A DNA stretch of 64,000 bases from the NCBI GenBank assembly GCA_965223465.1, contig OZ245025.1, forward strand, positions 2,253,900 through 2,317,899, read 5' to 3'. Origin of the DNA: Candidatus Poriferihabitaceae bacterium (GTDB lineage Bacteria > Pseudomonadota > Gammaproteobacteria > Arenicellales > Poriferihabitantaceae). This document shows, piece after piece, positions 14,022 to 53,485 of this stretch. Every line of letters begins with the position of its first letter. Position 1 is the first letter of the stretch. The notes below the pieces were generated by a model that ran no database searches, had not been told where the DNA came from, and was given only the letters and a program-made list of their open reading frames with translations. The translations under genes were made by a program, and so were the position numbers.

Positions 14022-14098
14022 TGGTGGGCCCGGTAGGACTTGAACCTACGACCAATGGATTATGAGTCCACTGCTCTAACCAACTGAGCTACAGGCCC
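14022..14098 (-). tRNA. ileX: tRNA with CAU anticodon, most likely tRNA-Ile2 (lysidine type, ileX-like)
   Basis: Minus strand reads GGGCCTGTAGCTCAGTTGGTTAGAGCAGTGGACTCATAATCCATTGGTCGTAGGTTCAAGTCCTACCGGGCCCACCA, a full cloverleaf. The C4:G69 and C5:G68 pairs and the TTCAAGT T-loop resemble E. coli ileX rather than elongator Met. It sits just downstream of rpoD, as ileX does in E. coli. Confidence 0.8.
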
Positions 14099-25134: not shown

Positions 25135-25320
25135 ATTTGTCTTCAAAAGTTTGATTGATAAAGCGTTACCCGCCTGTGCCGTGGCTAATCTGGACCTTGA
25201 ACCTGGAGGTTCAAGTGGGAGCGCCGGCATTGGTTTGGGCTTTCCGCTGACAAACAGTAAGGTACTTTTGCCACGGACATGCTCACCCCCTCCGCAATCA
25301 CTGCTCCCGAGATATGCATT
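25135..25320 (-). ncRNA. ssrS: Probable 6S RNA (ssrS); ends approximate
   Basis: The minus strand contains GGUGAGCAUG and, downstream, CACUUGAACCUCCAGGUUCAAGG. These parallel the E. coli 6S elements GGUGAGCAUG and CACCUUGAACCAAGGGUUCAAGG as I recall them. Long-range pairings are present (UGAUUG/CAAUCA, CCGUGGC/GCCACGG). It lies immediately upstream of ygfA on the same strand, which is the conserved ssrS-ygfA arrangement. Confidence 0.55.
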
Positions 25321-25447
25321 AGGTTCTAAGGGATATAGATTCGCTCACGCACACCGCAGGTAACGTCACGCAATTGTAGCAAATAAAAGGTCTATTCGGC
25401 TAAATAGCGCAAAATTTTGTTCACAACCAAGTGGTTTTGCTAAACTT

Positions 25448-32670: not shown

Positions 32671-32756
<86 letters not shown>

Positions 32757-32895
32757 TTCATATGCTTTCACGTACTCGCGCGCAGCGCGACAAACGCGAA
32801 AGGCTTAGTGCAGAATAAATCTATTCGATAAATTCTGCCCAGTACTTTATCACCAGCACCAATCACTATAGCCGCATATCGCCGCTATAAAAATA

Positions 32896-32972
32896 TGGGG
32901 TGAGCGATGGGGCTCGAACCCACGACCACCGGAATCACAATCCGGGGCTCTACCAACTGAGCTACGCTCACC
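32896..32972 (-). tRNA. tRNA-His (GUG anticodon) with the extra 5' G(-1)
   Basis: Minus strand reads GGTGAGCGTAGCTCAGTTGGTAGAGCCCCGGATTGTGATTCCGGTGGTCGTGGGTTCGAGCCCCATCGCTCACCCCA. Confidence 0.92.
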
Positions 32973-33032
32973 ATAATCAGCACCTGCCTTACAACAAATA
33001 CTGCGCCTCAACAGAGACTTGCACCAACCTAT

Positions 33033-33418
33033 TGGCGCGCCCGACAGGACTCGAACCTGTAACCTACGGCTTAGCTTACCCACCACGGCTTTCGCCGCCA
33101 AGATGATAGGCTATTCGCGCTACACACCCTGTTTGGGGTCTGGACTATATCTTCACCATTTCAGGTGGGACACGTATAGTCTCTACGGATCCCGTTTATT
33201 CGATACCTACCGCCACAGTGCTTCGCCCGCGACCCTTCGGTATCTTGCCGGTTTCCTCGGTATTGCCATAAGTGTACCACTATCATGCACTTGAAGGTTT
33301 CACCGATACAGTGTCCTGCACTGATCAAGTTTTGTTTCCCCGATCAGGCTCCTGTTAGAAATCAACTGCTCGATTTCATGTCAAAGGCCGTTGCTCTATC
33401 CAGTTGAGCTACGGGCGC
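33033..33418 (-). tRNA. tRNA-Arg (UCU anticodon) gene split by a group I intron between anticodon-loop positions 34 and 35
   Basis: The 5' exon is 33418-33384 (GCGCCCGTAGCTCAACTGGATAGAGCAACGGCCTT). The 3' exon is 33074-33033 (CTAAGCCGTAGGTTACAGGTTCGAGTCCTGTCGGGCGCGCCA). Joined, they give a perfect 77-nt cloverleaf with anticodon loop CUUCUAA. Confidence 0.85.
33075..33383 (-). ncRNA. Group I intron (IC3-like tRNA-intron type), ~309 nt, no internal ORF
   Basis: Core pairings are readable on the minus strand: P3 GGACAC/GTGTCC, P4 GTATC/GATAC, P6 GGGTC/GATCC, P7 AGACTATA/TATAGTC, P8 CACC-TGAAAT-GGTG, P2 CTGATC/GATCAG, and a GAAA-capped CGGC/GCCG hairpin. The upstream exon ends in U, the intron ends in G, and a GAGCC guide sequence is present. 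Confidence 0.8.
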
Positions 33419-33470
33419 TCATTCATTGCCAAAATAATTGTTAAATCACACCAATAATCTGGGCTAAAAC

Positions 33471-33547
<77 letters not shown>

Positions 33548-39617: not shown

Positions 39618-41288
<1,671 letters not shown>

Positions 41289-41315
41289 CCCTCCCCCTTT
41301 AACGCTGTAAACAAA

Positions 41316-41348
41316 GCCCTCGACTATACGATAGTCGGGGGTTTTTTA
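41316..41348 (+). terminator. Rho-independent terminator after groEL
   Basis: CCCTCGACTAT-acg-ATAGTCGGGGG followed by TTTTTTATT. Confidence 0.8.
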
Positions 41349-41489
41349 TTAATAAACGGTATATTATTGCCGATAATGATTGATATCACTATATAACATA
41401 TGCTACCTTGTTGGGCTTAGGCAAATTAGTATCAATGAACACGCTTGGAAACCACTATAGCCGCTACATAAACCGCCCTATACATCAAT

Positions 41490-42164
41490 ATGAAATTAGT
41501 GATTACACTATTTTGTTTGTTATTTCTGCCAGTGCAGAGTACCTGGGCTGCCTGTGGCAACGATGAGGCGTGTTTGCACAATGTTATTCGTGATGCGTTG
41601 AGTTTTGGTCAGACTTTGACAAATTTGGGGCCCAATTTAAATCAGGCTTACGATTTTGGATTGCAAAACCGGCCCGCCAATCCCCTACCACCATTAAACA
41701 ATTCGAATAACTTACGCAGCTCAGCGGCGAGTCACGCAAGACAATGTACATTTAGTCATAGTGGTATCAGTGGGGTGGGAGAAAACCTGTTTGTTGGCAC
41801 TGGCAACGCCTGGACATTAATAAACGCGATTAATAGTTGGGCAGATGAGGCGAGATATTTATCTTACCCAAAGAATGCTGCGTCTGTCAGCTGCGCAGCT
41901 GGCAAAGTTTGCGGACACTATACGCAAATGATCTGGGAAACCACTACCAATGTTGGCTGCGCTGTGCAATATTGCGCGCATGGGATTAGCGGATTTAGCA
42001 ACACACCTTCAACTAACATCGTGTGTCAATATAGCCTCCCGGGTAACTACGTCAACCACATCGGTGGCCCCATTTTGGCCCCCTATGCAGGTTTGGGTGT
42101 TATCAGCACCGATTCAATCCAGGCCATCACGCAAATCATTCAGTTATTATTGCTTAGCGAGTAA
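41490..42164 (+). CDS. Secreted CAP/SCP/PR-1-like domain protein
   Basis: Signal peptide plus GENLF and GHYTQMIWETTTNVGCAV hallmark motifs. Confidence 0.75.
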   Translation: MKLVITLFCLLFLPVQSTWAACGNDEACLHNVIRDALSFGQTLTNLGPNLNQAYDFGLQNRPANPLPPLNNSNNLRSSAASHARQCTFSHSGISGVGENLFVGTGNAWTLINAINSWADEARYLSYPKNAASVSCAAGKVCGHYTQMIWETTTNVGCAVQYCAHGISGFSNTPSTNIVCQYSLPGNYVNHIGGPILAPYAGLGVISTDSIQAITQIIQLLLLSE

Positions 42165-42173
42165 ATCTGGCCC

Positions 42174-42857
42174 ATGAACGAAGTATGGCGGGCTTTTATG
42201 GAAGATTTCCAGGTGAATAATATTGCTACGCAAATTGGCAGCACCTTGAGTCAATCGGAACGCACTCGACTGCAAGGCTTGACTCGCACGCAGCGACAAA
42301 AACAATATCTGCTATCAAGAGCGATGATGCGCGTTGCGCTCTCGCATCATTACGACCTGCCCTTATCCCACTGGCAACTGCAAGAAGGCCCTGATGCACC
42401 TCCCTCATTAATGAATCCAGTCGATCAACCACTTTATCTTAGTTTGAGCCATAGTGCAGATTGCATTATGTTGGCGATTAGTGCGCAGCCAGTGGGCCTG
42501 GATGTTGAATATATGCGGGCCGACCGACCCTTTACCCAAATTGCGCGGCGCGTGTTTACCCCAGAGCAGCAAGAGTCCTTGACCCGTTTCGACAAAAAAG
42601 AGCGGATGAAATATTTTTATCGCTTATGGACTGAGAAAGAAGCGCTGGTAAAAATTGCTGACCCTAATACAATTATCAGTATGTATTCCACCACACCGTG
42701 GGCAACCCATGAATATTCCGGCTATCACACTTATTTTGATGATTTTTATGTCTCAATTTTAAGCTCACTGGATGTCCAGGTATTTAGCAGCTATGACCTA
42801 AATTCATTTGAGGGATACGAAAAAAACTATATATTTAGCAAATACCAGCAGCATTAA
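42174..42857 (+). CDS. 4'-phosphopantetheinyl transferase (Sfp/EntD type)
   Basis: LSLSHSADCIMLAIS, VGLDVE and WTEKEALVK motifs. Confidence 0.75.
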   Translation: MNEVWRAFMEDFQVNNIATQIGSTLSQSERTRLQGLTRTQRQKQYLLSRAMMRVALSHHYDLPLSHWQLQEGPDAPPSLMNPVDQPLYLSLSHSADCIMLAISAQPVGLDVEYMRADRPFTQIARRVFTPEQQESLTRFDKKERMKYFYRLWTEKEALVKIADPNTIISMYSTTPWATHEYSGYHTYFDDFYVSILSSLDVQVFSSYDLNSFEGYEKNYIFSKYQQH

Positions 42858-42913
42858 CGCCCCATTTAATGCAAACTTCCAGGCAATAAACATTAATAAG
42901 CTACGGATCGCTT

Positions 42914-44647
42914 TTGGATACCTTATCTGAATCTAAAAAAATCGCCGCAACTATCTTGCTCGGCTTTGACCACCACTTTACCCTGTTCAGCGCAGTCACC
43001 AAGGGGGCAAAACGACGCTTCGAACAAGCTAACTGGGAGGGCGATAACCAGGCACGCGTCGAACGCATTGCCTATTATGATATCCGGGTTCGCGAGGCGG
43101 TTCATGAGTTGCAGAAAAACTTTAGCCTTGAGCATCAAGATAGAGGCTTATGGCAACAAGTCAAGCTACAGTATATGGGTCTACTGTATGAACATCGACA
43201 GCCAGAGCTGGCCGAAAGTTTTTACAACTCTGTTTTTTGCCAGTTATTTCACCGCAGTTATTACGATAACTCGCACATTTTTGTACGTCCCGGTCTATCA
43301 ACCGATATTATTGATCTGCACACCCCGGCGTACCGCAGTTTTTATCCGCTTGAATGGGGCACCAAAAAAACCCTGAGAACTTTACTCTTACAGTTTCACC
43401 TAAAACTGGAGTGGGAAGATTTAGGGCGAGATGTAAAACGTTTATCCAAAGCGTTTAAACCTTTATTTAGCAGTCCACGCCAAACCAGTGATACCTGTCA
43501 GCTACAAATAATCACTACCTTGTTCTTTAGGAATAAGGCTGCGTATATCGTTGGCAGAACGCGCGTTGCAGGTCAAATCTCCGGCTTTGTGATTCCCTTA
43601 TTGCGCAATGATAATGATCAGCTCTATGTTGATACCCTGATTACCGATGATCGTTCTCTGGCCATTATATTCAGCTTCACCCGCGCGTATTTTATGGTCG
43701 ACAGTAAAGTGCCTTCAGCCCTGATCGGCTTTATGCACAGTATTTTACCGAGCAAGACCAAATCGGATCTTTACACCGCGATCGGTTTTCAGAAGCAAGG
43801 TAAGACATTGTTTTATAGAGATTTTCTTAGCCATCTGGCACATTCTTCTGATCAATTTATTATCGCGCCAGGAATTGAAGGAATGGTCATGAGCGTATTT
43901 ACGCTACCCTCATTTCCCTATGTATTCAAGGTAATCAAAGACAAATTCGACCAGCCCAAAAACATTACCCGTCAGCAGGTAAAAAACCAGTACCTGTACG
44001 TTAAGACGCATGATCGCGTGGGGCGCATGGCCGACACGCTCGAATTCTCCCACGTTGCATTTCCCATAGAACGTGTTTCAGCAGAGCTCCTAGACAAATT
44101 AAAGCAAGACATTAGCGACAGCCTAACCATTGAAGATGATCAAATCATTATTCGCCATTTGTATATCGAACGGCGCATGATCCCACTGAACCTATACCTT
44201 GCAGAAGCAGATGATGCGTCGATAGAGCACGCCATCAAGGAATACGGCAATACCATCAAAGAACTCATCAAAGCGAATATTTTCCCGGGTGATATGCTGC
44301 TTAAAAACTTTGGAGTCACCCGTCAAAACCGGGTTGTTTTTTATGATTATGATGAAATTGTGCCAATGAAATCCGTTCGAGTGCGGGCGATCCCACCTGC
44401 TCGAACACCGGAACAGGAAATGGCCACCGAACCCTGGTATCGGGTAGAAGAAAATGATTTCTTTCCCGAACAGTTCGAACGTTTTGTCGCCAGTGCGCCC
44501 AAAATTAGAACGCTGTTTGTCAAGCATCATGCTGATTTACTTGATCCTGAATACTGGCAAGGGGTGGTTAGGAATCTAGAGAAAGGGGTGCGTGCAGATG
44601 TCTATCCTTATCCGCAGAATGTAAGGTTTAAACGTAATTCGACGTAA
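42914..44647 (+). CDS. aceK: Isocitrate dehydrogenase kinase/phosphatase
   Basis: 577 aa. AATILLGFDHHFTLF...AKRRFEQANW at the N-terminus and ANIFPGDMLLKNFGVTRQNRVVFYDYDE at the C-terminus. Non-ATG start. Confidence 0.9.
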   Translation: MDTLSESKKIAATILLGFDHHFTLFSAVTKGAKRRFEQANWEGDNQARVERIAYYDIRVREAVHELQKNFSLEHQDRGLWQQVKLQYMGLLYEHRQPELAESFYNSVFCQLFHRSYYDNSHIFVRPGLSTDIIDLHTPAYRSFYPLEWGTKKTLRTLLLQFHLKLEWEDLGRDVKRLSKAFKPLFSSPRQTSDTCQLQIITTLFFRNKAAYIVGRTRVAGQISGFVIPLLRNDNDQLYVDTLITDDRSLAIIFSFTRAYFMVDSKVPSALIGFMHSILPSKTKSDLYTAIGFQKQGKTLFYRDFLSHLAHSSDQFIIAPGIEGMVMSVFTLPSFPYVFKVIKDKFDQPKNITRQQVKNQYLYVKTHDRVGRMADTLEFSHVAFPIERVSAELLDKLKQDISDSLTIEDDQIIIRHLYIERRMIPLNLYLAEADDASIEHAIKEYGNTIKELIKANIFPGDMLLKNFGVTRQNRVVFYDYDEIVPMKSVRVRAIPPARTPEQEMATEPWYRVEENDFFPEQFERFVASAPKIRTLFVKHHADLLDPEYWQGVVRNLEKGVRADVYPYPQNVRFKRNST

Positions 44648-44675
44648 TTCAACCAAAGTAAATGAGTGGTTAATT

Positions 44676-45065
44676 TCAGTTTGCCCATCGCGTATTATTC
44701 CTATAGTCTAGGCTAAACCCACCCGCGCCATGGACCGCGAGTAACAACAATCCCCCTGCCATGGCTACATTTTTCATAAATAGCATCACCTGTATCTGGT
44801 CACCAAAATCCACATGGAACAATAATGCAGTGAGCACGGTAAAACTCCCCAAGGCCACCGCCGCTAACCGGGTATGCCAACCAATAATAATCAGAATCGG
44901 CAGCCCCAATTCAGCAACGATCACAAAGGGGAGCAACCAATCCGCCACGCCGGATAGTTCCATAAAACGCGCGGTTTCTTGATAGGCCAGGATTTTAGTC
45001 GTACCCGCCATTAGAAATATGGCGGACAATAAAATGCGACTCACAAGTTCTAGCACGTTTTGCAT
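44676..45065 (-). CDS. DoxX family membrane protein
   Basis: 129 aa with four TM segments; RILLSAIFLMAGTTKI pattern. Confidence 0.7.
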   Translation of the reverse strand: MQNVLELVSRILLSAIFLMAGTTKILAYQETARFMELSGVADWLLPFVIVAELGLPILIIIGWHTRLAAVALGSFTVLTALLFHVDFGDQIQVMLFMKNVAMAGGLLLLAVHGAGGFSLDYRNNTRWAN

Positions 45066-45196
45066 AGTTGGCAGTCGGATTACAACCGCATTTAAAAAAC
45101 CCAGATCTTCTCATTAGTGTACAAGTATAACGATAAGTTCATTGTGCCAAGGTTTAACAATTGTAGTTATTCGCCCTAGCAATTAAGATCGCGCCC

Positions 45197-45829
45197 ATGA
45201 AACATCGTTTTGCCATCACTATGCTGGCCATCTATCTGGTGGTTTTTGTACTCATGGCGGTAAATCCCTATGATCGCGCTACCTGGTGGGCAGAAAATCT
45301 GCCGGTGATGATCACGGTTGGGTTACTGCTTGTCACCTACCCGTGGTTTCAGTTTTCCAATATTGCATACGCACTGATGACCTTATTTCTGTGCTATCAC
45401 ACCGTTGGGGGGCATTACACCTTTGCCTTGACTCCGTTCGAATGGGGTAACCGTCTGCTTAGCTGGTTAAATATGGAGTTTCTTTTTCCCGATGGGCGCA
45501 ATAATTTTGATCGCCTCGGTCACTTTTTGGTGGGTGTGTTCGCATACCCAGTCGCTGAACTGGCCTATCGAAAAAAATGGGTAAGCAGCACCATCATGGC
45601 AGCGGTACTGGGTATTTTTGCCCTGGGGTTTTGGGGCGCTGCCTACGAGGTTATCGAAATGGCTTTTGCGGTTATTTATGGTGGAGATTCAGGTGCGGCG
45701 TTTTTGGGCTCACAAGGTGATGAATGGGACGCCCAAAAAGATATGCTGATAGATATTCTTGGTGCAATCGTGACCGCCTTGTTGTTCTTAACGGTATGGG
45801 CCAATAAATATCCAGATGACCGATACTGA
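45197..45829 (+). CDS. DUF2238 (YjdF-like) membrane protein
   Basis: 210 aa, multi-TM; FLCYHTVGGHYTF and FDRLGHFLVG motifs. Confidence 0.6.
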   Translation: MKHRFAITMLAIYLVVFVLMAVNPYDRATWWAENLPVMITVGLLLVTYPWFQFSNIAYALMTLFLCYHTVGGHYTFALTPFEWGNRLLSWLNMEFLFPDGRNNFDRLGHFLVGVFAYPVAELAYRKKWVSSTIMAAVLGIFALGFWGAAYEVIEMAFAVIYGGDSGAAFLGSQGDEWDAQKDMLIDILGAIVTALLFLTVWANKYPDDRY

Positions 45830-45872
45830 TGCGGCGCACCAGTGCGCCGCATCTAATTACGCCCAATAAGTT

Positions 45873-46844
45873 TTATAAATGTAAATCCACATCTGCGTAA
45901 CTGACCGGCGCATCTTCACTGACCGCCTCTTTAAACAGCGTAAGGTTGGTTACAACCAGATTCTTTTTGGTTTTTGATACGACCGCACTCAGTGCTTGTA
46001 TATCCTGTTCTTCTGTGCTGGATTCATCCTTTGCGCGCCAAATAAGCTCCGCTTTTTTATTATACTTCGTAATCTTTGATTCACTTGGATGGCCATATTT
46101 TTCCACTAAAAGTTGTTGGACATTGTCAGAATCAGTATTGACTACCTGCACCAATTCCAGGCGATCAAGCCGCGCAATGCGCTTGTCGCTAAACCAAGCT
46201 TTCAGGCATTTCCAGTTTGGCTTAGCCGCATAAACATATCGACTTGCATCAAAATTGGAAGGACAACCACCTGCTCGCATGGTCATCAATCCCTGATCCG
46301 CATCGTATTGAGGAACCACCTTAAACGTATCGGTCACTATTTTAGACACCTCAGCAACCGTCATACCCAATTCCAAATCCGTGACCGTTAACTTGTCGCT
46401 CAATACGTTGGTATCATACTGCGTTGTGCGCCAGTTATCGTTGTATCTTGCGCTGTCGTAGGGTGCTATCTGCCCAAGTGTATCTGATACGATGGGCTTC
46501 ACTAGCCAATTATTTCGTTGTGTCAAATTCCCCTGATATACGGTTTCACGCAAGCCTCTAACCATGCCGATGATATTAATTTCAGATAGCTGCGGACACT
46601 CATAATTAAGCATCGCGCGTACGGTGTCGCCGACCACCTGCAACTGCGTTGAACCTGGTTCGTAGATCTCCGGTCGCGAGGTATCTATAGTGATGTCAGC
46701 AGCGCGGTAACAATCCAGCGCCCCATTTAAACTCACTGTTTGATCACCATCGCTGATTAAAATGCGCTCTGCCCACGTGTTTGCAACGAATAAACAGTTT
46801 GCCAATAGCGCAGTGAACAATAATTTGTAGTTTAGCTTTTTCAT
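45873..46844 (-). CDS. Secreted hypothetical protein
   Basis: 323 aa with a signal peptide (LLANCLFVANTWA). I recognise no family. Confidence 0.5.
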   Translation of the reverse strand: MKKLNYKLLFTALLANCLFVANTWAERILISDGDQTVSLNGALDCYRAADITIDTSRPEIYEPGSTQLQVVGDTVRAMLNYECPQLSEINIIGMVRGLRETVYQGNLTQRNNWLVKPIVSDTLGQIAPYDSARYNDNWRTTQYDTNVLSDKLTVTDLELGMTVAEVSKIVTDTFKVVPQYDADQGLMTMRAGGCPSNFDASRYVYAAKPNWKCLKAWFSDKRIARLDRLELVQVVNTDSDNVQQLLVEKYGHPSESKITKYNKKAELIWRAKDESSTEEQDIQALSAVVSKTKKNLVVTNLTLFKEAVSEDAPVSYADVDLHL

Positions 46845-47644
46845 TAGATCCTCACCCAGTTACCGTTGGCTTGCTGACAGGCTTTGAACTGGTGAGATTC
46901 ACTGCTCCCACCGCGCAGACTTACCTTCTGCGTAATCATGCGACAATTCGACGCTTGCGTAACATAGCGGCCGGGCTGCGCGCCAAATGATGCGTCGCGT
47001 ATTGCATTGGCCTGTGCGGATTGATTGCTGTCATAACGCATCAATGGTGCGTATAAAAACCCTGATGCCTTGCCCTGCTCAGCGATCAGAAACCAATTGC
47101 TGTCGATGACTTTACCCACGACCGGAACCGATTTGCCCTGCGCGATACTGTGTAACACCGCGTACTCTGTGCCTGGCCCGCCACGAACATTGATATCCGT
47201 GGTGGGGGTATAAAAGGCATTCACCAACTCAATGGGTGGTAAGCGATCCAACGCAGGCTTTAAATGACTGCGTGAAGGTGGCGTATAATCTCTAACCGAT
47301 ACCTGGGTACGGGTGCCGGTATCCGGATTACGCCAGGTCGTCGGCTGGCCTGAATATATCGCCCTAGAAGTCGCTTGATTGATCCCAGCACGATCGATTT
47401 GCGTAAGCCGCCGGCCGATTTTTCCACCCGCCCAATAACCCGCGAGTGTACCCGCTGCAATCGCCGCGGTTCGACCACTACCCCCTCCAACTTTAGAACC
47501 GATAATGGCGCCGGTAATTGCCCCCAAGCCTTTGCTGACGTTTTCTTTATTTAACTCCGGCCAGTTCTGCGCCTGCACAGGCGTCGCCGAAATCCCCAAA
47601 ATTGTTAATCCTGTAAATATATATTTTTTAACCATCGCGTTCAC
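46844..47644 (-). CDS. Exported protein with a glycine-zipper (17-kDa-antigen-like) segment and a bacterial SH3 domain
   Basis: GAITGAIIGSKVGGGSGRTAAIAAGTLAGYWAGGKIG is the glycine zipper. INVRGGPGTEYAVLHSIAQGKSVPVVGKV..NWFLI is SH3b-like. Confidence 0.6.
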   Translation of the reverse strand: MNAMVKKYIFTGLTILGISATPVQAQNWPELNKENVSKGLGAITGAIIGSKVGGGSGRTAAIAAGTLAGYWAGGKIGRRLTQIDRAGINQATSRAIYSGQPTTWRNPDTGTRTQVSVRDYTPPSRSHLKPALDRLPPIELVNAFYTPTTDINVRGGPGTEYAVLHSIAQGKSVPVVGKVIDSNWFLIAEQGKASGFLYAPLMRYDSNQSAQANAIRDASFGAQPGRYVTQASNCRMITQKVSLRGGSSESHQFKACQQANGNWVRI

Positions 47645-47781
47645 CTTTCTACGTTTGAAAATGGTAAACGCATTCTAGATTGGGGTAAGTGAACGTAATT
47701 TGAATTTTAACCAAACACTTGCTGAACAACTGCTCTCGTTCAGGTTAGCATCAAGTTTTATGCGACCTCCAGAAGATTTTG

Positions 47782-48672
47782 TTAAAGACCACGTTGCCAC
47801 TCCGGCCTCAGTGTGGCCGCTTCGGGTCGATAAATTGCCTGATCAACCTGCGCCAGCAATCTTTCTTTATCTTTGTTCAAAACGCCCTTAAGCACCAGGT
47901 AATTCGAAGCGTGATCGCTTCGGAAAATGGTTTTACGTAAGTCAAGATGTTGTAGAAATAACCTGATTTCCTTAAACAAATGCGCCTGGTCTAGCGCCAC
48001 AAACTCACCCTCATACCCTTGTTGTACGCGCTGCTCGCCGTAAGGTAAGGAAACCACCAGAGTGGCCAGGTATTCGGGCTGGGCCAGATTCATTAACTTG
48101 GCACTGTTAATCGCATGTTGCGCTGAATACTTCTGCCCACCCATGCCATTTAAAATCATAATCGAGCTTTTAATGCCGGCTTGTTTTATTTTATCCAGCG
48201 ATTCATAAGAGCTGGCGAAAGTCTCGCCTTTTTCGATTTTTTGTAGTACTTCATCATCCCCACTTTCACAACCAACATAAAGTAATTCCAGACCAAGCGC
48301 TTTAAGGCTGGCTAACTGCTCAACACTTTTGTTTTTAAGGTTGCGAGGCAAACAGTAAGCCGAGACCCGCTGTATTGTAGGCAATGCTGCCTGAATGGCC
48401 TCAAGAATGGCGCGTAGGCGCCGATAAGATAAAGCCATCGCATCACCATCGGCGAGAAATATACGCCTTACGGGATAACCCATTTTTACCACCGCCTGAA
48501 GTTCGCGCTCAATCTCATCCTGCGCCTTAGGCTTAAAGCGCTTTTGTGGCGCGGTATACATATCGCAGAAAGTACACCGATTCCAGGAGCAGCCATTGGT
48601 GACTTGCAGGATCAGTGAATTGACTTCACTCGGCGGCCTGAAAACCGGCTCAATGTAATCCAGTGGGTACAC
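47782..48672 (-). CDS. Radical SAM protein, function unknown
   Basis: 296 aa; the motif CSWNRCTFC lies near the N-terminus. Confidence 0.7.
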   Translation of the reverse strand: MYPLDYIEPVFRPPSEVNSLILQVTNGCSWNRCTFCDMYTAPQKRFKPKAQDEIERELQAVVKMGYPVRRIFLADGDAMALSYRRLRAILEAIQAALPTIQRVSAYCLPRNLKNKSVEQLASLKALGLELLYVGCESGDDEVLQKIEKGETFASSYESLDKIKQAGIKSSIMILNGMGGQKYSAQHAINSAKLMNLAQPEYLATLVVSLPYGEQRVQQGYEGEFVALDQAHLFKEIRLFLQHLDLRKTIFRSDHASNYLVLKGVLNKDKERLLAQVDQAIYRPEAATLRPEWQRGL

Positions 48673-48702
48673 GCTATCTGCGGAACTAGCTTGGTTGGAG
48701 AA

Positions 48703-49971
48703 TTATGCCTTAAACGCCTGTTCAAGGTCTGCCAGGATATCATCAATATGCTCGATGCCAATACAAAGACGCAGCATTTCCGGGGTCACGCCGGCGGTGG
48801 CCTGTTCCTGTTCATTCAACTGCCGATGCGTGGTGGACGCAGGATGGCAAGCCAAAGTCTTGGTATCACCAATATTCACCAGTCGTTTAATCATTTGTAG
48901 TGCGTCATAAAACTTCACGCCTGCATCAAACCCACCTTTGATGCCAAAGGTCAGCAAGGACGCGGGGGCACCACCCATATATTTTTGCGCCAAATCGTAA
49001 TACTGATCACCTTCTAGCCCCGCATAATTAACCCACTCTACCTGGGAGTGATTCTGCAAATATTGCGCGACTGCAAGCGCATTTTCGCAATGTCGCTCCA
49101 TTCTCAAGGTTAACGTTTCAATCCCTTGGAGCAGCATAAATGCGCTCATGGGCGAAAGCGCCGAACCGGTATTACGCAAAGGTACGGTACGCGCCCTGGC
49201 GATAAAGGCCGCAGCCTCAAATGCCTCGGTATAAACCACATCATGATAGGCCGGCTCCGGTTGGGTCAATGTAGGAAAACGCTCAGTGTGGTCTGCCCAG
49301 GGGAAGGCACCAGAATCGACAATAATGCCACCTAGGGTCGTACCATGACCACCCATATACTTGGTTAGCGAATGCACCACAATATCCGCGCCATATTCAA
49401 TCGGCTTAAGCAGGGCGGGCGTCGCGACGGTATTATCGACAATCAACGGCACGTGATGCTGATGCGCCATATCTGCAAGTGACTCAATATCTGCGATATT
49501 GCCCGCGGGATTCCCAATGGATTCACAATAAACTGCCTTGGTATTTTCATCGATCAATTTTGCCAGGTCTGCGGCGCTATCACTTTCTGCAAAGCGCACC
49601 TCTATACCTTGCTTGGGGAGCATGTGGGCTAATAAGGTATACGTTCCACCATATAGCTGGGGTGTACTGACGATATTATCACCCGCTTGCGCGATGGTCA
49701 GAATGGCATAATTTATCGCCGCGCTGCCCGCTGAGGTCGCCAACGCAGCAATTCCCCCTTCCAGCGCTGCGACTCTTTTTTCTAGCACATCCCAGGTGGG
49801 ATTCATGATACGCGTATAAATATTCCCAGGCACCGCCAGATCGAATAAATCCGCACCGTGTTGTGCGTTGTCAAACTCATACGCTACCGTTTGATAAATC
49901 GGTACTGCACAAGATTTCGTGGTCTGATCGGTTTCGTAACCTTCGTGCACACAAATAGTCTCAATTTTCAT
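48703..49971 (-). CDS. metY: O-acetylhomoserine sulfhydrylase (PLP-dependent, MetY type)
   Basis: 422 aa; HSLTKYMGGHGTTLGGIIVD contains the PLP lysine. Confidence 0.88.
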   Translation of the reverse strand: MKIETICVHEGYETDQTTKSCAVPIYQTVAYEFDNAQHGADLFDLAVPGNIYTRIMNPTWDVLEKRVAALEGGIAALATSAGSAAINYAILTIAQAGDNIVSTPQLYGGTYTLLAHMLPKQGIEVRFAESDSAADLAKLIDENTKAVYCESIGNPAGNIADIESLADMAHQHHVPLIVDNTVATPALLKPIEYGADIVVHSLTKYMGGHGTTLGGIIVDSGAFPWADHTERFPTLTQPEPAYHDVVYTEAFEAAAFIARARTVPLRNTGSALSPMSAFMLLQGIETLTLRMERHCENALAVAQYLQNHSQVEWVNYAGLEGDQYYDLAQKYMGGAPASLLTFGIKGGFDAGVKFYDALQMIKRLVNIGDTKTLACHPASTTHRQLNEQEQATAGVTPEMLRLCIGIEHIDDILADLEQAFKA

Positions 49972-50102
49972 GGAACTCCTCTTAAGTGATTTTTATAGAT
50001 TGTTCTGGCTTACCACCAGCGCTGCCTTTATACGCGATATTATTGCATAATTTGAAAATTGAACGCAGCCAAGGATACGGTCAAATTGTCAGGTTTTTGC
50101 TG

Positions 50103-51263
50103 TTAGTCTTCAAGTAACGTTCCCGCCGGATTCGGCATAGATTGCTTACCGGCGATGCGCGCCAGTACCTGCCCGGGCCGGGCGAGACGATCCAGACGCC
50201 GCGCAAACATAATACCTGCGACCGACGCCTTAAGCTCAATGCGGGATTGCTTAGTATCATACTGCGTGATGTCAAATACCACACAAATCACATCGCCAGG
50301 ATTAACCCACGCTCCTGGCTGTTTTTTATAGCTGACCACGCCTGCGATCGGTGCGGTAATTTTCTCGACGCCATCTAAGGGGGTGGCTTCTATGCTTAGC
50401 TTTGCTGGCGTGGGTGGCTCGCCAAGTAGTAGTCCACATGACTGTAAATAGTAGAATAGATTTTGTGCGTCTGTGTGGGCTTGCTGTTCATTTGTATCTG
50501 TTTTGCCACGTAGTTCTATTGTCGCAGCCTGACAAGCATTACCAATTGGCTTATCTGGAAAGCGCTCTGCCAATGCCCACCAGAGCCCACTTAAGGCTTC
50601 ATCAAATGGGTTACCACCCGAGACTTTTTCCAGTAGCACGGCTTCGGCACGCATATAGGCTGCCAGATTTTTCATGCCTGACCATAAAGGGGTACCCATA
50701 TAAATATGCATGACGGACTGCCAGTCACAATGCAGGTCTAGCACAATATCGGCATCAATAGCGTTGGTGAGCAACGTGTTTTTAAGAAAGCCTGCTTCAT
50801 CTCGCGGGCGCTTCTTTTTAATCAACTTTTTAGCCGATTGACGAATAAGTTGGGTATTTAGTTGCGCGTCTTTGCATAACTTGTTGGCGACCCGCTCCGC
50901 GACTTGATCTGCCAACTCAGGATATTGACGGTTAAAATTAATCCCGCTTGATTGTTCGTAGCGCCCGGCCAGCTCTCCGAACAAATGCTGCGCCAGCCCA
51001 ATCGGGTTGGCAATCGGTACGAGTACAATATGCCCCGCAATTTCACCCGCTTGATCCGCCGCATCGAGCAACTGAATCAATTGATGCATGACCAGCAGTC
51101 CCGGTATTTCATCGGCGTGCAATGCCGCCTGCAAATAGGCTTTGGGGCCGTGATCAACTACCCCATAGTGGAGGATATCGAGCGACCGTTGGGTACCCGG
51201 GCTGGCACTGGGCAGCGAGATTTTCTCCACCCTTCGCGTATTTTTCTGAGATAAATCTGGCAT
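50103..51263 (-). CDS. Succinylglutamate desuccinylase/aspartoacylase family zinc hydrolase
   Basis: 386 aa; AALHADEIPG and DLHCD motifs of the AstE/AspA family. Confidence 0.7.
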   Translation of the reverse strand: MPDLSQKNTRRVEKISLPSASPGTQRSLDILHYGVVDHGPKAYLQAALHADEIPGLLVMHQLIQLLDAADQAGEIAGHIVLVPIANPIGLAQHLFGELAGRYEQSSGINFNRQYPELADQVAERVANKLCKDAQLNTQLIRQSAKKLIKKKRPRDEAGFLKNTLLTNAIDADIVLDLHCDWQSVMHIYMGTPLWSGMKNLAAYMRAEAVLLEKVSGGNPFDEALSGLWWALAERFPDKPIGNACQAATIELRGKTDTNEQQAHTDAQNLFYYLQSCGLLLGEPPTPAKLSIEATPLDGVEKITAPIAGVVSYKKQPGAWVNPGDVICVVFDITQYDTKQSRIELKASVAGIMFARRLDRLARPGQVLARIAGKQSMPNPAGTLLED

Positions 51264-51813
51264 ATCTATCTACCTGGAAAATCAACAACCTCGCCGCTAG
51301 CAGTGGGGTAGGTACGAGGAACTGCTTAACCTTCGCCCCAAGGTGCGGCGAATTAGACCCATTAGTGGGATTAAAACCAATGGGTCTTTAAGATTCGGCC
51401 TCTTTTACGATATTACACCATACGACAATTTATTGACTCCGTAGTACTCAGTGGGGTAATCATCTCCGCCCCTAAGCTCGAAATTAATTTGAGCCATAGA
51501 GATCTGATTAGATTCGGGTAAATGCTAGAAGTGCCAAAAACGGAGCGGGTCAATAAATACACAGTTTAGATGTGGTATATTTGATGCACTAGGATTAGGG
51601 GTGTTCGGACGAACAAAATTTTCGAATGCTAAACCACTATTTCGTTTATCCGAGCGCGAACTACTTAAAGGTGTACTTGCTAAATCTATTAGGTGCAATA
51701 CCAAAAGAAATACTAATTAACTTATTGATATATAAATGATAAATTATAAAAAGAAATTATTTATACACCTGGTAGTAAAAATATATACACCTTCACAAGG
51801 TGTATAATAATTG

Positions 51814-52555
51814 TTAGGCATCAAGGGATATCACTGGTGGAAATCCAAACTCTTCAGAATCAACTTGTGATTGATCATGCGTAGGCTTATTGGCTCGTTG
51901 TGGTGGGTTCTGGAGAGCCAGTGGTGGGTTGTCATTGAACATACGGATGGGCTCCAAAAATGCATTCGGGCCGGGAGCCCAACCGCATTGATCGTTCTCA
52001 TCTGGGCGCCGATTATGTGCTTCCCCCAATGGCTCATCGCGCCGCTGTTCGGTTATAGGCTGGAAACTCTGTCAGTTTTCGTGGCTCGGATGGCCGCTAT
52101 GTGCATCGTTCGAAAGCTCGATGGGATCATGCCCCTCACAAGAGCATTGGGGCTTTGCCATCTGGTTACTTTCGGCCCTGTTCTGGTTCTTCTGCTTATG
52201 TCAGGCAGCGCCAGTTCCGAGGGTTCCTACTTCGGTTGGTTCGTCTTGAGTCAGATCTTTGTTATTGGGCTCTGCTTGTTTATGGATGCGCGTGATTTCT
52301 TCTTCTATCTGGGAGGGCATCCGTATCCATGCTACGTGCGAGAAGGTGCCATTGGCGGTCAACTGCAAATAGATGACCCGAAGGCTCATGAGAAAGTCAC
52401 ATGGCGATCTCGGTTCATCGGCCCTTAAAGATGAGAAATCGCACAGCTGGCCGCACCGGAAGCGTTTGCGGTTTGAGGCCTAACAAATCGCTTCAGAGGA
52501 CGAGAAACCGTTCGGCTTACGCCTCCTCGGCTTCTCGCCGCTGAGCCTGGGTCCG
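51814..52555 (+). mobile_element. Integron-type gene cassette 1 (742 bp)
   Basis: Starts after the G of GTTAGGC (51813-51819). Ends at the G of GTTAGAG (52555). Its attC inverse core GCCTAAC (52478-52484) is the exact complement of its own upstream core. Confidence 0.7.
51877..52428 (+). CDS. Cassette-borne hypothetical membrane protein
   Basis: Cassette ORF. The track starts it at TTG 51871, but ATG 51877 is more likely. It has several hydrophobic segments and I recognise no family. Confidence 0.5.
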   Translation: MRRLIGSLWWVLESQWWVVIEHTDGLQKCIRAGSPTALIVLIWAPIMCFPQWLIAPLFGYRLETLSVFVARMAAMCIVRKLDGIMPLTRALGLCHLVTFGPVLVLLLMSGSASSEGSYFGWFVLSQIFVIGLCLFMDARDFFFYLGGHPYPCYVREGAIGGQLQIDDPKAHEKVTWRSRFIGP

Positions 52556-52561
52556 TTAGAG
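52478..52561 (+). mobile_element. attC recombination site 1 (84 bp)
   Basis: The left arm is GCCTAAC-AAATC-GCTTCAGAGGACGAGAAACC. It is an imperfect inverted repeat of the right arm GGCTTCTCGCCGCTGAGCCTG-GGTCC-GTTAGAG, with extrahelical bases as is typical of attC. Confidence 0.7.
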
Positions 52562-53051
52562 CTACTCAATGATAAAAAGCATCATAATAATTACTGGTGT
52601 AGTGTTAATTGTTTGGCTATATCATTTATTTACACGCCCGTTGCCTGCATTTAGGGCTTTACCACATAGTGTCGCTGAGCGCGCTCAAGAATACTATGTT
52701 AGCTCAGATTTTCTTCCCAATTATACGCATTGCATCAAAGCCCCCTTGAATGTGCAGCAATTCCAAGAGTTTGTAACAAAAATGGAATTTTCAAAGGGCT
52801 CGGCATTAAAAACTTATCCTCAAACTTGTAATAATAAGTGGCATAACAACTCATGGTGGGATCCACCATTATTAAAAGAGGCTGTAATAATCTTTGAAAA
52901 CTATAGTACTACAACTGAATCTGGCGAGTTAGCAGTATTCAGTGAGGGACGACTATATTATGTTGGCTGGAATTCGTAGCTCTAACAAATCATTCAAGTT
53001 TGCCGCTACGCGGCGGGACGCGCGCTGCGCTTGCGGCCCCTAATTCAACCG
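52556..53051 (+). mobile_element. Integron-type gene cassette 2 (496 bp), visibly AT-richer than its flanks
   Basis: Starts TTAGAGC. Its attC begins GCTCTAAC (52979-52986), the exact complement of GTTAGAGC at its upstream boundary. Ends at the G of GTTGGAT (53051). Confidence 0.7.
52569..52979 (+). CDS. Cassette-borne hypothetical protein with an N-terminal TM helix
   Basis: 136 aa. The stop codon overlaps the attC inverse core, which is a common cassette layout. Confidence 0.55.
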   Translation: MIKSIIIITGVVLIVWLYHLFTRPLPAFRALPHSVAERAQEYYVSSDFLPNYTHCIKAPLNVQQFQEFVTKMEFSKGSALKTYPQTCNNKWHNNSWWDPPLLKEAVIIFENYSTTTESGELAVFSEGRLYYVGWNS

Positions 53052-53057
53052 TTGGAT
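52979..53057 (+). mobile_element. attC recombination site 2 (~79 bp)
   Basis: GCTCTAAC-AAATC-ATTCAAGTTTGCCGC ... GCGGCCCCTAATTCAACC-GTTGGAT. It shares TAACAAATC.(C/T)TTCA with attC1 and ends in a GTTRRRY core. Confidence 0.65.
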
Positions 53058-53118
53058 CTCAGACATAATCGATACTTTGTCGTACTAAAAATAAGCGTAT
53101 TTCTCTGCGCATAAGACA

Positions 53119-53149
53119 CAAAAAACCCGGCCTTCGGCCGGGTGTTTTA
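53119..53149. terminator. Bidirectional rho-independent terminator
   Basis: aaaaaACCCGGCCttcGGCCGGGTgtttt. It serves the minus-strand cytochrome c gene and would also stop read-through from the cassettes. Confidence 0.8.
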
Positions 53150-53170
53150 ACTCTGTAAAGTAGGGTGACA

Positions 53171-53485
53171 CTATTTATTTGCTTCGATCATATAATCTAC
53201 CGCTGTTTTAATCTCATCGTCGCTTAAGTTCATAAACCCCCCTTTTGGCGGCATCACGCCCGTCTCACCCTGAAAGCCGTTGATGGCATGTCCATAGAGG
53301 GTTTCTTTATCTTGGCCAATACGTGCTGCCCATGCTGCTTTATCACCCATTTTAGGTGCACCCGCGACACCCGTTGCATGACATGCTGCGCAACCGCTGT
53401 TATATACCGCTTTGCCGTCAGCCATTGCTGTGCCAGCCATAAAGGTTAAACTGCCCGCAATAAGTAACGTTCTTACTAATTTCAT
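53171..53485 (-). CDS. Cytochrome c5-type monoheme cytochrome
   Basis: 104 aa; signal peptide, CAACH heme-binding site, and a distal MPPKGG Met ligand region. Confidence 0.88.
   Translation of the reverse strand: MKLVRTLLIAGSLTFMAGTAMADGKAVYNSGCAACHATGVAGAPKMGDKAAWAARIGQDKETLYGHAINGFQGETGVMPPKGGFMNLSDDEIKTAVDYMIEANK

Follow-up and report, generated by a model that had tools for sequence, protein, structure and literature searches.

Layout of the locus

Between two housekeeping genes in a 64-kb stretch of DNA (the window, by which we mean the whole stretch analysed) lies an array with the canonical element order attI-[ORF-attC]-[ORF-attC] (Table 1). An earlier note on this DNA had described integron cassettes without an integrase nearby, flanked by genes for a desuccinylase-family hydrolase and a cytochrome c. 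Pfam bears out both flanks, as an AstE/AspA-family hydrolase and a cytochrome c, and the cassettes are recovered as well: two attC sites match covariance models, and tblastn searches with integron integrases come back blank throughout the 64 kb. The 3' end of the array stops ~110 bp short of the cytochrome c gene, whose terminator a consensus scan places at 53125-53143. A plasmid BLAST search with 51264-53170 returned no match.

Table 1. Features of the locus, in window coordinates.
Feature	Position	Strand	Basis and remarks
Left flanking core gene, AstE/AspA-family (succinylglutamate desuccinylase/aspartoacylase) hydrolase	50103..51263	-	Pfam PF24827, E 6e-17; syntenic in L014 and L015
Spacer, from hydrolase start codon to attI	51264..51749		Expected intI position; without IntI remnant
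attI, Methylophaga-type integron family	51750..51815	+	Repeat/palindrome architecture, profile match
Cassette 1	51814..52555	+	From TT of GTTAGGC to G of the next GTT; ORF1 51877-52428, 183 aa
attC1	52478..52561	+	R'' GCCTAAC, L box GCTTCAG/CTGAGC, R' GTTAGAG; covariance models
Cassette 2	52556..53051	+	5' end set by attC1, 3' end by attC2; ORF2 52569-52979
attC2 (weaker, divergent)	52980..53057	+	R'' (G)CTCTAAC, L box ATTCAAG/CCTAAT, R' GTTGGAT; covariance models
Right flanking core gene, cytochrome c (c5-like)	53171..53485	-	Pfam PF13442 and PF00034

The core motifs GTTAGGC (51813-51819), GTTAGAG(C) (52555-52562) and GTTGGAT (53051-53057) stand where the earlier note had placed them. Its label of GTTRRRY-type cores is right as to position but not as a strict description, since GTTAGAG/CTCTAAC departs from GTTRRRY/RYYYAAC. 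The exact pairing that it had seen between core and inverse core is there in both cassettes: GTTAGGC is matched by GCCTAAC at 52478-52484 (7/7), and GTTAGAGC by GCTCTAAC at 52979-52986 (8/8). In each cassette, the 5' end is thereby the complement of the cassette's own R'', the hallmark of a circular intermediate joined by recombination at G|TT. Given the start of cassette 2, the chance of finding its reverse-complement octamer within the following 620 bp is ~0.9%.

In these respects the locus resembles canonical platforms such as the class 1 integron and the Vibrio cholerae superintegron, in which attI is followed by co-oriented ORF-attC units, the attC sites have the form R''-L''...L'-R' with an extrahelical base in the L box, and the 5' end of a cassette likewise complements its own R''. 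Unlike those platforms, the window has no intI and no recognisable Pint or Pc, and ~66 bp of platform are left, or possibly ~147 bp. A scan for sigma-70 promoters found no more sites than in shuffled sequence, and we therefore propose no Pc promoter.

attC sites and cassettes

The covariance models that match the two attC sites were built solely from foreign attC sites in unrelated metagenomic arrays, with no sequence from the window; they are home-made rather than IntegronFinder's and draw on a related environmental cassette pool. Because MAFFT misaligned attC sites of unequal spacer length, the first model was limited to nine sites whose right spacers are 6 nt long (one site being loop-trimmed) and was then iterated. 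attC1 scores 43.3 bits with model R1 and 45.3 bits with model R2 (E 1e-7 to 2e-8). The scores of attC2 are marginal, at 20.1 and 19.1 bits, with a roughly calibrated E of 0.025-0.033 over the window and an E of 0.0047 in a 9-kb search with filters off; genuine attC sites withheld from training score 19-29 bits. These two sites were the only matches in 128 kb searched, the next best candidate reaching 10 bits, and ~100 kb of control loci gave zero covariance-model matches. The test by attC model that had been suggested for this locus thus speaks for both sites. They lie on the same strand with 419 bp between the matches, which places at least two attC sites within 4 kb, as in a CALIN, the name given to clustered attC sites without an integron integrase (Cury et al. 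2016, PMC4889954).

Folding, also suggested earlier, supports attC1 but on energy alone is unconvincing for attC2. The bottom strand of attC1 forms an R-paired hairpin of -19.9 kcal/mol (z -2.5), whereas attC2 as it stands gives a z of +0.67 and hence no energetic signal. When the circular forms of the two sites are reconstructed, the R boxes are fully paired and attC2 adopts the attC hairpin, at a z of just -1.0. Its L box reads ATT...AAT against GTT...AAC in the family, a double compensatory change that also occurs in two other arrays (L021c, L039a). The motif said to be shared by both sites, TAACAAATC.(C/T)TTCA, is present, in attC2 only with an offset of 1 nt. A strict RYYYAAC...GTTRRRY scan missed both real sites and returned coding-region noise only, a constrained minimum-free-energy scan for AAC...GTT hairpins returned numerous false matches from coding sequence and did not recover attC2, and an Rfam search produced no attC family, its weak sRNA look-alikes falling solely at the cytochrome c terminator. 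Core-like heptamers are common in the window.

Both ORFs read in the cassette direction and have the sizes given earlier (~184 and 136 aa), ORF1 with 183 or 185 aa (51877 or 51871 to 52428) and ORF2 with 136 aa. Cassette 2 is, as had been remarked, AT-richer, its GC content being 0.36-0.40 against 0.47 for the whole window.

Cassette 1 recurs in an unrelated integron (L001/L002) at 97.8% nucleotide identity (98.7% in the ORF), directly after an integron integrase gene whose product is a TIGR02249-class IntI. The homology begins at GTTAGGC, and there too the cassette is the first of its array. Further, ORF1 homologues with 86-87% amino acid identity lie inside the cassette arrays L012 and L013, within the same boundaries. 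Judged by the recurrence of its sequence across arrays, cassette 1 is mobile. ORF1 matches no Pfam or NCBIfam family; its product is predicted to be a five-helix membrane bundle, and the AlphaFold model (pLDDT 90) has no fold match in the PDB. The product of ORF2 is an orphan with a hydrophobic anchor at its N terminus, and among 5.8 billion proteins it matches only itself. Because ORF2 has no relatives, it is the anatomy of cassette 2, and that only, which points to its mobility. Native sequence alignable with the related species (L015) resumes at ~53070-53120, past cassette 2. Annotators should mark ORF1 and ORF2 as accessory genes carried on cassettes and not as core genes.

The attI site and the missing integrase

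Comparison with other loci identifies the segment immediately 5' of the first GTT as a genuine attI, which is a new result. It comprises a direct repeat, TATACACC, at 51762-51769; a palindrome, TATACACC-ttcacaa-GGTGTATA, at 51784-51806; and the spacer ATAATT at 51807-51812, followed by the crossover triplet G|TT at 51813-51815. When six [intI-attI] modules from other loci were made into an nhmmer profile, this attI was its sole match in the window (E 1.2e-9).

A family scan with the pattern TATACACC-N7-GGTGTATA-N6-GTT found the same architecture in 15 distinct loci (the window included), mostly in Methylophaga-type MAGs, and their comparison yields the consensus TATACACC-N13/14-TATACACC-N7-GGTGTATA-ATAATT-G|TT. 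Since the search pattern itself prescribed the arms of the palindrome, finding them conserved is not independent evidence. The ATAATT spacer is conserved across the 15 loci even though the pattern left it unconstrained, as is the upstream direct repeat, and all of the loci (15/15) diverge immediately after GTT, into cassettes and then attC sites. The consensus is a searchable marker for Methylophaga-type integrons.

At five of these loci (L040, L042, L028, L037 and L047) a divergent TIGR02249 integron integrase starts 128-149 bp upstream, on the opposite strand; in L040, L042 and L028 the distance is ~138 bp. The gene is intact in L040, where the integrase scores 459.6 bits against TIGR02249, and in L042; it is frameshifted in L028 and reduced to remnants in L037 and L047. 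An intact adjacent intI is absent from 13 of the 15 attI loci, and one MAG carries two modules, each of intI codons 1-38 plus attI, with different flanks.

In the window, tblastn with P0094, P0199 and the L040 IntI found no integrase, the best match (E 0.2) lying elsewhere in the 64 kb; the intI-free stretch around the array reaches 51 kb in one direction and 11 kb in the opposite one. No protein of the source contig (3,377,492 bp) stands among the best 120 matches to the L001-type IntI or in the clusters of the L040 and L042 IntI. An intI adjoining attI, as in a complete integron, is found in L040 and L042 and not in the window. The spacer where intI would be expected is common only to the conspecific locus L014 and is absent from L015. 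Within it, AAGGTGTA at 51668-51675 aligns, not significantly, with a motif beside the intI start codon of other loci. A decayed intI 5' end at ~51610-51680, at which a MAFFT alignment hinted, was supported by neither nhmmer nor tblastn and was rejected.

Probable origin of the array and possible cassette exchange

Very probably, the locus is a decayed small sedentary chromosomal integron, of which attI and two cassettes are left and from which intI has been lost. The window array is a CALIN of the ordinary kind, whose origin is traceable here unusually cleanly. It is typical of the two-cassette class, with two attC sites ~500 bp apart, no intI within 4 kb, a small array and cassettes of unassigned function; two-cassette CALINs make up 1362 of 2961 (10.1101/2022.09.11.507474), and 95% of CALINs have no intI pseudogene nearby (PMC4889954). 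Where CALINs come from is debated, the candidates being integron debris, rearranged array fragments and direct attG insertions (PMC4889954; 10.1101/2022.09.11.507474). Whereas most CALINs have an untraceable origin, the window array still opens with an identifiable attI, so that loss of intI can be demonstrated as its origin. To our knowledge, attI sites are unannotated outside classes 1-3, and for that reason the origin of an individual CALIN can seldom be decided; because attI could be defined here by comparison, intI loss can be named as the origin of a CALIN that is typical of the two-cassette class.

According to the history that we propose, an integron integrase inserted the cassettes at the crossover triplet, recombining attI with attC; intI has been deleted, and attI and the two cassettes persist. 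Integron integrases recognise attC sites broadly and attI sites of their own kind specifically. For cassettes to be exchanged after the loss of intI, an integrase of the same, Methylophaga-type family would have to be supplied in trans, from another genomic locus or from a transient element.

Comparison with relatives, which the earlier note had also called for, reveals a cassette-boundary polymorphism exactly at GTT, plus an empty site. The conspecific L014 (95-99% nucleotide identity) is identical to the window through ...AATAATTGTT and then continues into a different ORF, the junction falling exactly at G|TT; it too is intI-less upstream of attI and has the same structure as the window, with a different first cassette. 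In L015 (~80% nucleotide identity) the hydrolase and cytochrome c genes are 197 bp apart, which represents the empty site. Elsewhere in the attI family, two loci that both lack intI (L026 and L046) differ by the precise presence or absence of a first cassette at the same attI. At third codon positions, ORF1 of the window differs from that of L001 at 4 of 184 sites, and the flanking genes of the window differ from those of L014 at 88 of 810 (Fisher p 6e-5), a contrast that involves four ORF1 substitutions only and assumes comparable rates. Between the window and L014, the attI core differs at 1 of 100 positions and the remaining spacer at 51 of 453 (p 5e-4).

These divergence data suggest that a cassette was captured after intI had been lost, from which we infer an integrase acting in trans. 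It seems to us an even call whether the attI kept exchanging cassettes after intI loss. Alternatively, deletion of intI would have killed the integron, with no recombination at attI since, and the different cassette in L014 would be due to homologous replacement by DNA of another lineage, to a polymorphism of older date, or to a join made in assembly across the repeated attI. We regard this as possible, if somewhat doubtful. The flanks of the window and L014 form a mosaic (99.2% versus 95.4% identity), and L014 is a metagenome contig of 3x coverage that ends in IS21, for which such a join is possible; attC2 looks eroded, and the 13 attI loci without an intact adjacent intI would also suit an inert relic, as would the widespread inactivation of intI in Xanthomonas, after which arrays remain fixed (bioRxiv 10.1101/2025.06.18.660453). 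By contrast, a relic in which recombination had ceased sits poorly with the divergence of cassette 1 from the copy carried by an unrelated integron, which is far smaller than that between the intI-less flanks, with an attI core much better conserved than the neighbouring spacer, with an L014 junction exactly at G|TT, and with the precise first-cassette difference between the intI-less L026 and L046.

The decayed Xanthomonas integrons at the ilvD locus, described by Gillings et al. 2005 as cited in bioRxiv 10.1101/2025.06.18.660453, which extends that work, share with the window a fixed chromosomal locus between core genes, an intI that is dead or deleted in most lineages, and attI and cassettes that persist. 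Those arrays, however, are reported to be stable once intI is dead, whereas here two conspecific sequences without intI differ in their first cassette and cassette 1 of the window looks recently acquired; the host lineage, here Methylophaga-like Gammaproteobacteria, and the attI sequence differ as well.

Extending continued exchange to the whole family, Methylophaga-type integrons could be distributed systems in which intI-less attI docking sites, sometimes several per genome, are under selection and exchange cassettes through one distal or transient integrase. We think this unlikely, though worth stating: it would account for the 13 of 15 loci without an intact intI and for the two attI modules in one MAG, and equally for an attI core conserved beside a diverged spacer and for a cassette 1 apparently younger than the intI-less state. 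If true, CALINs of this type would not be debris but satellite platforms that are still live. The locus offers a concrete way to test whether cassettes continue to be gained in trans at orphan attI sites.

It is very improbable that the cassettes were put directly into an ordinary secondary site (attG, consensus GWT) and that there was never an integron here. An attG origin has been proposed for two-cassette CALINs, which no other class outnumbers (10.1101/2022.09.11.507474); in SALIN/attG insertions (Loot et al., bioRxiv 10.1101/2022.09.11.507474), integrase-less chromosomal cassettes are joined at G|TT as they are in the window. The absence of a detected intI remnant from the window and the empty site in the related species would fit such an insertion. 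However, attG sites share GWT only and have no att likeness, whereas the window junction lies inside a conserved attI with repeat and palindrome: the insertion point is no arbitrary GWT but the crossover GTT of a 66-bp site matching the attI family. That family adjoins intI in L040, L042 and L028, and two related strains have the same junction with different cassettes.

The earlier note had left a choice between an integrase-less cluster and the far end of a decayed chromosomal integron. The decayed integron stands; the far end does not, since the array opens at a recognisable attI and is therefore the whole two-cassette array. The remnant is viewed from its attI-proximal end and is complete with its two cassettes. 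For many CALINs, Cury et al. did propose that arrays had been split by IS elements (PMC4889954), and an IS21 lies within the L014 array. Nevertheless, it is scarcely credible that a rearrangement parted the far end of a large array from its integrase here, with attI and not attC at the start, just two attC matches in 64 kb, and core genes syntenic with L015 on both flanks. Finally, we consider negligible the chance that the palindromes are terminators or REP-like elements behind two ordinary genes, to which the missing folding signal of attC2 and the frequency of core-like heptamers might otherwise point: the window has no other covariance-model matches, L015 lacks the locus, and cassette 1 is found in three independent integron arrays.

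Cassette anatomy and attC sites

Between core genes, in an accessory position, lies an attI without an integrase gene, and after it come two cassettes, ordered and oriented as in a canonical integron. Cassette 1 occupies 51814-52555 and cassette 2 occupies 52556-53051. The five core and inverse-core motifs reported in the earlier note are all where it placed them, and both ORFs lie between the cores in the cassette direction. Cassette 2 is indeed AT-richer than its surroundings (GC 0.36-0.40, against 0.51-0.56 for cassette 1 and 0.47 for the window), and the neighbours named as a desuccinylase-family hydrolase and cytochrome c5 are identified as an AstE/AspA-family hydrolase and a cytochrome c. 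The same note saw no integron integrase gene (intI) near the cassettes. Tblastn with the L001 integrase fragment, two full-length IntIs and a cognate-type IntI agrees, giving nothing better than E 0.2 in the 64-kb window and no match in 51264-51812. Among the top 120 L001-type IntI matches and the L040/L042 IntI clusters, no candidate intI for the same genome was identified. Elsewhere in the window, a 6S RNA gene (25163-25365, minus strand) and four tRNA genes (Met, Leu, His, Pro; 14022-14098 and 32671-33547) are all ordinary.

Features of the cassette locus, in window positions
Feature	Position	Strand	Basis or remark
AstE/AspA-family hydrolase	50103-51263	-	left neighbour
core GTTAGGC	51813	+	direct reading of sequence
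ORF1	51877-52428	+	183 aa counted from ATG
inverse core GCCTAAC	52478	+	direct reading of sequence
attC1	52478-52561	+	R1 43.3 bits, E 1.4e-7; R2 45.3 bits
core GTTAGAG(C)	52555	+	direct reading of sequence
ORF2	52569-52979	+	136 aa
inverse core GCTCTAAC	52979	+	direct reading of sequence
attC2	52980-53057	+	R1 20.1 bits, E 0.025; R2 19.1 bits
core GTTGGAT	53051	+	direct reading of sequence
cytochrome c	53171-53485	-	right neighbour

Because Rfam holds no attC family, we built a substitute covariance model without any window sequence. Training arrays came from two metagenomic loci reached through ORF1 homologues (L012, L013) and from more loci reached through the upstream-site search; model R1 comprised nine clean foreign attC sites with R box and L box pairs annotated by hand (alignment A4), and R2 was rebuilt from 23 sites. 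On both strands of the window at E <= 10, R1 returned exactly two matches, attC1 and attC2. Across 174 kb of gathered loci it recovered more true attCs outside its training set at 16.5-46 bits (most 19-46), including L028a, L031a, L039a and L012 3730, and it gave no attC match on the non-integron control loci L003, L009, L014 and L015. With R2, filters off, the next best match in 48-57 kb scored 10 bits. Both sites proposed earlier were therefore matched by these models, used in place of IntegronFinder's: attC1 is a secure attC site, and attC2 a weak one, correctly placed and oriented. The ends of attC2 fit the family consensus (left, CTAACAAATCATTCAAG vs CTAACAAATCGTTC...; right, TAATTCAACCGTT vs ...AACTCAANCGTT), and its L box, ATT...AAT where GTT...AAC is usual, carries a double compensatory change that L021c and L039a share. 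Folding energy alone gives attC2 no support, with z +0.67 as it stands and -1.0 with its own R' restored from the cassette 5' end; the minimum-energy fold of the restored form is an attC-type hairpin.

The recombination site upstream of the first cassette

The 60 bp before the first GTT carry TATACACC twice direct and once inverted, giving a perfect 8-bp-arm palindrome. A scan for TATACACC-N7-GGTGTATA-N6-GTT returned 25 loci from metagenome contigs and 10 from GTDB genomes; 14 distinct loci plus the window were kept after unrelated matches and duplicates were dropped. Beyond the scan pattern, these have in common an ATAATT spacer, another TATACACC-like repeat that lies 13-14 nt upstream, and extra GGTG motifs farther upstream. 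Similarity stops directly after GTT at every locus; from there on the loci differ, carrying small co-oriented ORFs with attC sites.

L040 and L042 (L042 being an uncultured Methylophaga MAG) each have an intact 317-aa gene on the opposite strand, whose start lies 138 bp upstream, and the L040 product scores 459.6 bits against the integron integrase model TIGR02249 (cutoff 265). The same gene is frameshifted in L028 and reduced to N-terminal fragments in L037, L047, L044 and L031/L050; eight attI loci, the window included, have no intI. The intI-attI-cassette order of L040/L042-type loci is the canonical integron layout. Further, a profile of six intI-attI modules has its sole window match at 51750-51815 (E 1.2e-9), which on this comparison we identify as the attI. 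Among orphan loci the platform kept upstream of GTT varies from ~48 to ~250 bp, as expected from independent deletions. The named hosts of the family (Methylophaga, Piscirickettsiaceae, Methylomarinum and unclassified Gammaproteobacteria) fit the composition of the window. Defining this attI family for Methylophaga-type integrons by comparison goes beyond routine annotation.

Several members of the family showed features of their own. The Methylophaga sp. NORP65 MAG holds two modules of an intI remnant (codons 1-38), attI and attC array (L044 5730-5979 and L047 6352-6602, oriented), 82% identical over ~250 bp, with apparently the same intI truncation point and unrelated upstream flanks; the pattern suggests that truncation came first and the platform was then duplicated or moved, the alternative being MAG contamination between strains. 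L046 (2697-2760) lacks the first cassette of L026 (1478-1885, both oriented) and has the second joined straight to attI at GTT, a precise cassette presence/absence between two intI-less loci. At 0-434, ~1 kb from its attI, L026 also encodes a homologue of the gene found at 46844-47644 in the window (58% aa). L027 (~700-760, reverse strand) has the same first cassette as L026 and a crossover triplet GAC, not GTT (...GGTGTATAATAATTGACAGTGGG); its attI is apparently mutated and presumably dead. In L040 (1248-1290) and L044 (5980-6020, oriented), a conserved GC-rich hairpin, C(T/C)CACCGCCAGC(C)GGCGGTG(A/G)GAA, directly follows the attI GTT and is followed by GAGTTAA; with no obvious ORF, this may be a cassette that lacks an ORF or some other structured element.

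Related genomes and the history of the locus

Cluster look-up led to two metagenome relatives from one sample, the conspecific contig L014 and the ~80%-identical L015. L014 matches window 40589-51815 at 95-99% identity, a match that covers all 550 bp ahead of the first core and ends at 51815. The shared sequence closes with ...GGTGTATAATAATTGTT; after it comes AGGCATCAAGG (cassette 1) in the window and, in L014, GTGTTTTGAAAGATGAATCAGG, a different small ORF broken by IS21. L014 coverage is low and the contig ends in the IS, an IS21-family element (IstA/IstB; L014 1-2766) that splits the first cassette after attI. L015 is syntenic on both sides; there 197 bp separate the hydrolase gene from the cytochrome c gene, and the cassettes and the AT-rich upstream segment are both absent. 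The L014 junction and the empty L015 site therefore make the locus accessory and polymorphic exactly at G|TT, the opposite of conserved core genome.

Identity to L014 falls from 99.2% (40589-45808) to 95.4% (45817-51815), which points to a recombination breakpoint near 45.8 kb, ~6 kb from the integron remnant. In the hydrolase-attI spacer, 51264-51400 (137 bp) is near-identical to L014, with 3 differences, includes an inverted repeat (GACCCATT...AATGGGTC, ~51357-51387) and may be a hydrolase promoter or leader; 51401-51715 (315 bp) is ~15% diverged.

Under the definition of Cury et al. (PMC4889954), the locus is a CALIN, an attC cluster without integron integrase; intI is the one feature that separates it from a complete integron. 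It resembles decayed Xanthomonas chromosomal integrons, in which intI is inactivated in most lineages (bioRxiv 10.1101/2025.06.18.660453). The earlier note had offered an integrase-less attC cluster or the far end of a decayed chromosomal integron; integrase-less and decayed both stand, and "far end" does not, as the array begins at attI. With attI at its start and core genes on both sides, it is not a distal fragment of a larger array. Nor is it an attG/SALIN-type insertion (10.1101/2022.09.11.507474), because the target is attI rather than bare GWT.

We propose that the lineage ancestral to both window and L014 would have carried an integron platform here, that intI would then have been deleted, because both share the intI-less spacer, and that cassettes would later have been swapped at attI. 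We give this last step, exchange after intI loss with an integrase acting in trans, an even chance. An argument for it, tempered by the low coverage of L014 and its end in an IS, is that window and L014, both intI-less, carry different first cassettes at the same G|TT. Further, at third codon positions the ORF1 copies of the window and of L001, an unrelated integron, differ by 4/184, a small count, against 88/810 for the flanking hydrolase and metY genes between window and L014, a mosaic flank (99.2% up to 45.8 kb, 95.4% beyond) (Fisher p 6e-5); the split between the cassette copies is therefore more recent than that between the two intI-less hosts. Window and L014 differ at 1 position in the last 100 bp before GTT, against 51/453 in the remaining spacer (p 5e-4), whose central part has 48/316 differences; this suggests that the orphan attI is under constraint. 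In every standard assay, integrases work in trans. In-trans mobilisation of CALINs is already assumed in the literature (bioRxiv 10.1101/2025.06.18.660453). On both counts the trans step would be mechanistically unremarkable. A second step beyond routine annotation is that the comparison resolves the origin of one two-cassette CALIN and offers circumstantial evidence that it captured cassettes once its integrase was lost.

Cassette mobility and cassette products

A protein search gave 64 ORF1 homologues. In Fangia and in some metagenome bins, the 198-aa form sits in the chromosome as an ordinary gene, with no nearby attC; the 183-aa form is cassette-borne. In the loci L001/L002, homology to the window starts at GTTAGGC, and a cassette 1 copy 97.8% identical (ORF 98.7%) lies directly 3' of an integrase gene whose product is 91% identical to proteins named integron integrase by JGI; a full-length relative of this integrase scores 443 bits against TIGR02249. 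L012, a 13-kb contig (11.2 kb read) with 16/16 called genes co-oriented, and L013 carry ORF1 copies 86-87% identical with the same 5' boundary as cassette 1, and in L012 an attC starting GCCTAACAAATCG follows. The L001/L002 intI (L001 3-686, L002 1-489) is on the same strand as the cassettes, an "inverted" layout; its product is only ~50% identical to the Methylophaga-type IntI, and its nearest named relative is in a Thermoanaerobaculales MAG (72%). Given so dissimilar an IntI beside the same cassette, cassette 1 circulates between very different integron platforms. ORF2 has no relatives besides itself among 5.8 billion proteins, so the mobility of cassette 2 is argued from anatomy and composition.

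Neither Pfam nor NCBIfam has a family that matches ORF1, and no PDB fold matches it; its high-confidence predicted model is a five-helix membrane bundle that ends in a short C-terminal tail (pLDDT 90, pTM 0.82). ORF2 has one N-terminal hydrophobic segment. Compared with P0038-P0049, the many invariant residues of the ORF1 family include His22, Trp43, Arg71, Asp82, His95, Asp137 and Arg139. The Fangia hongkongensis member is an ordinary chromosomal gene, and homologues 50-56% identical occur in dinoflagellate and diatom data (Symbiodinium, Durusdinium, Effrenium, Attheya).
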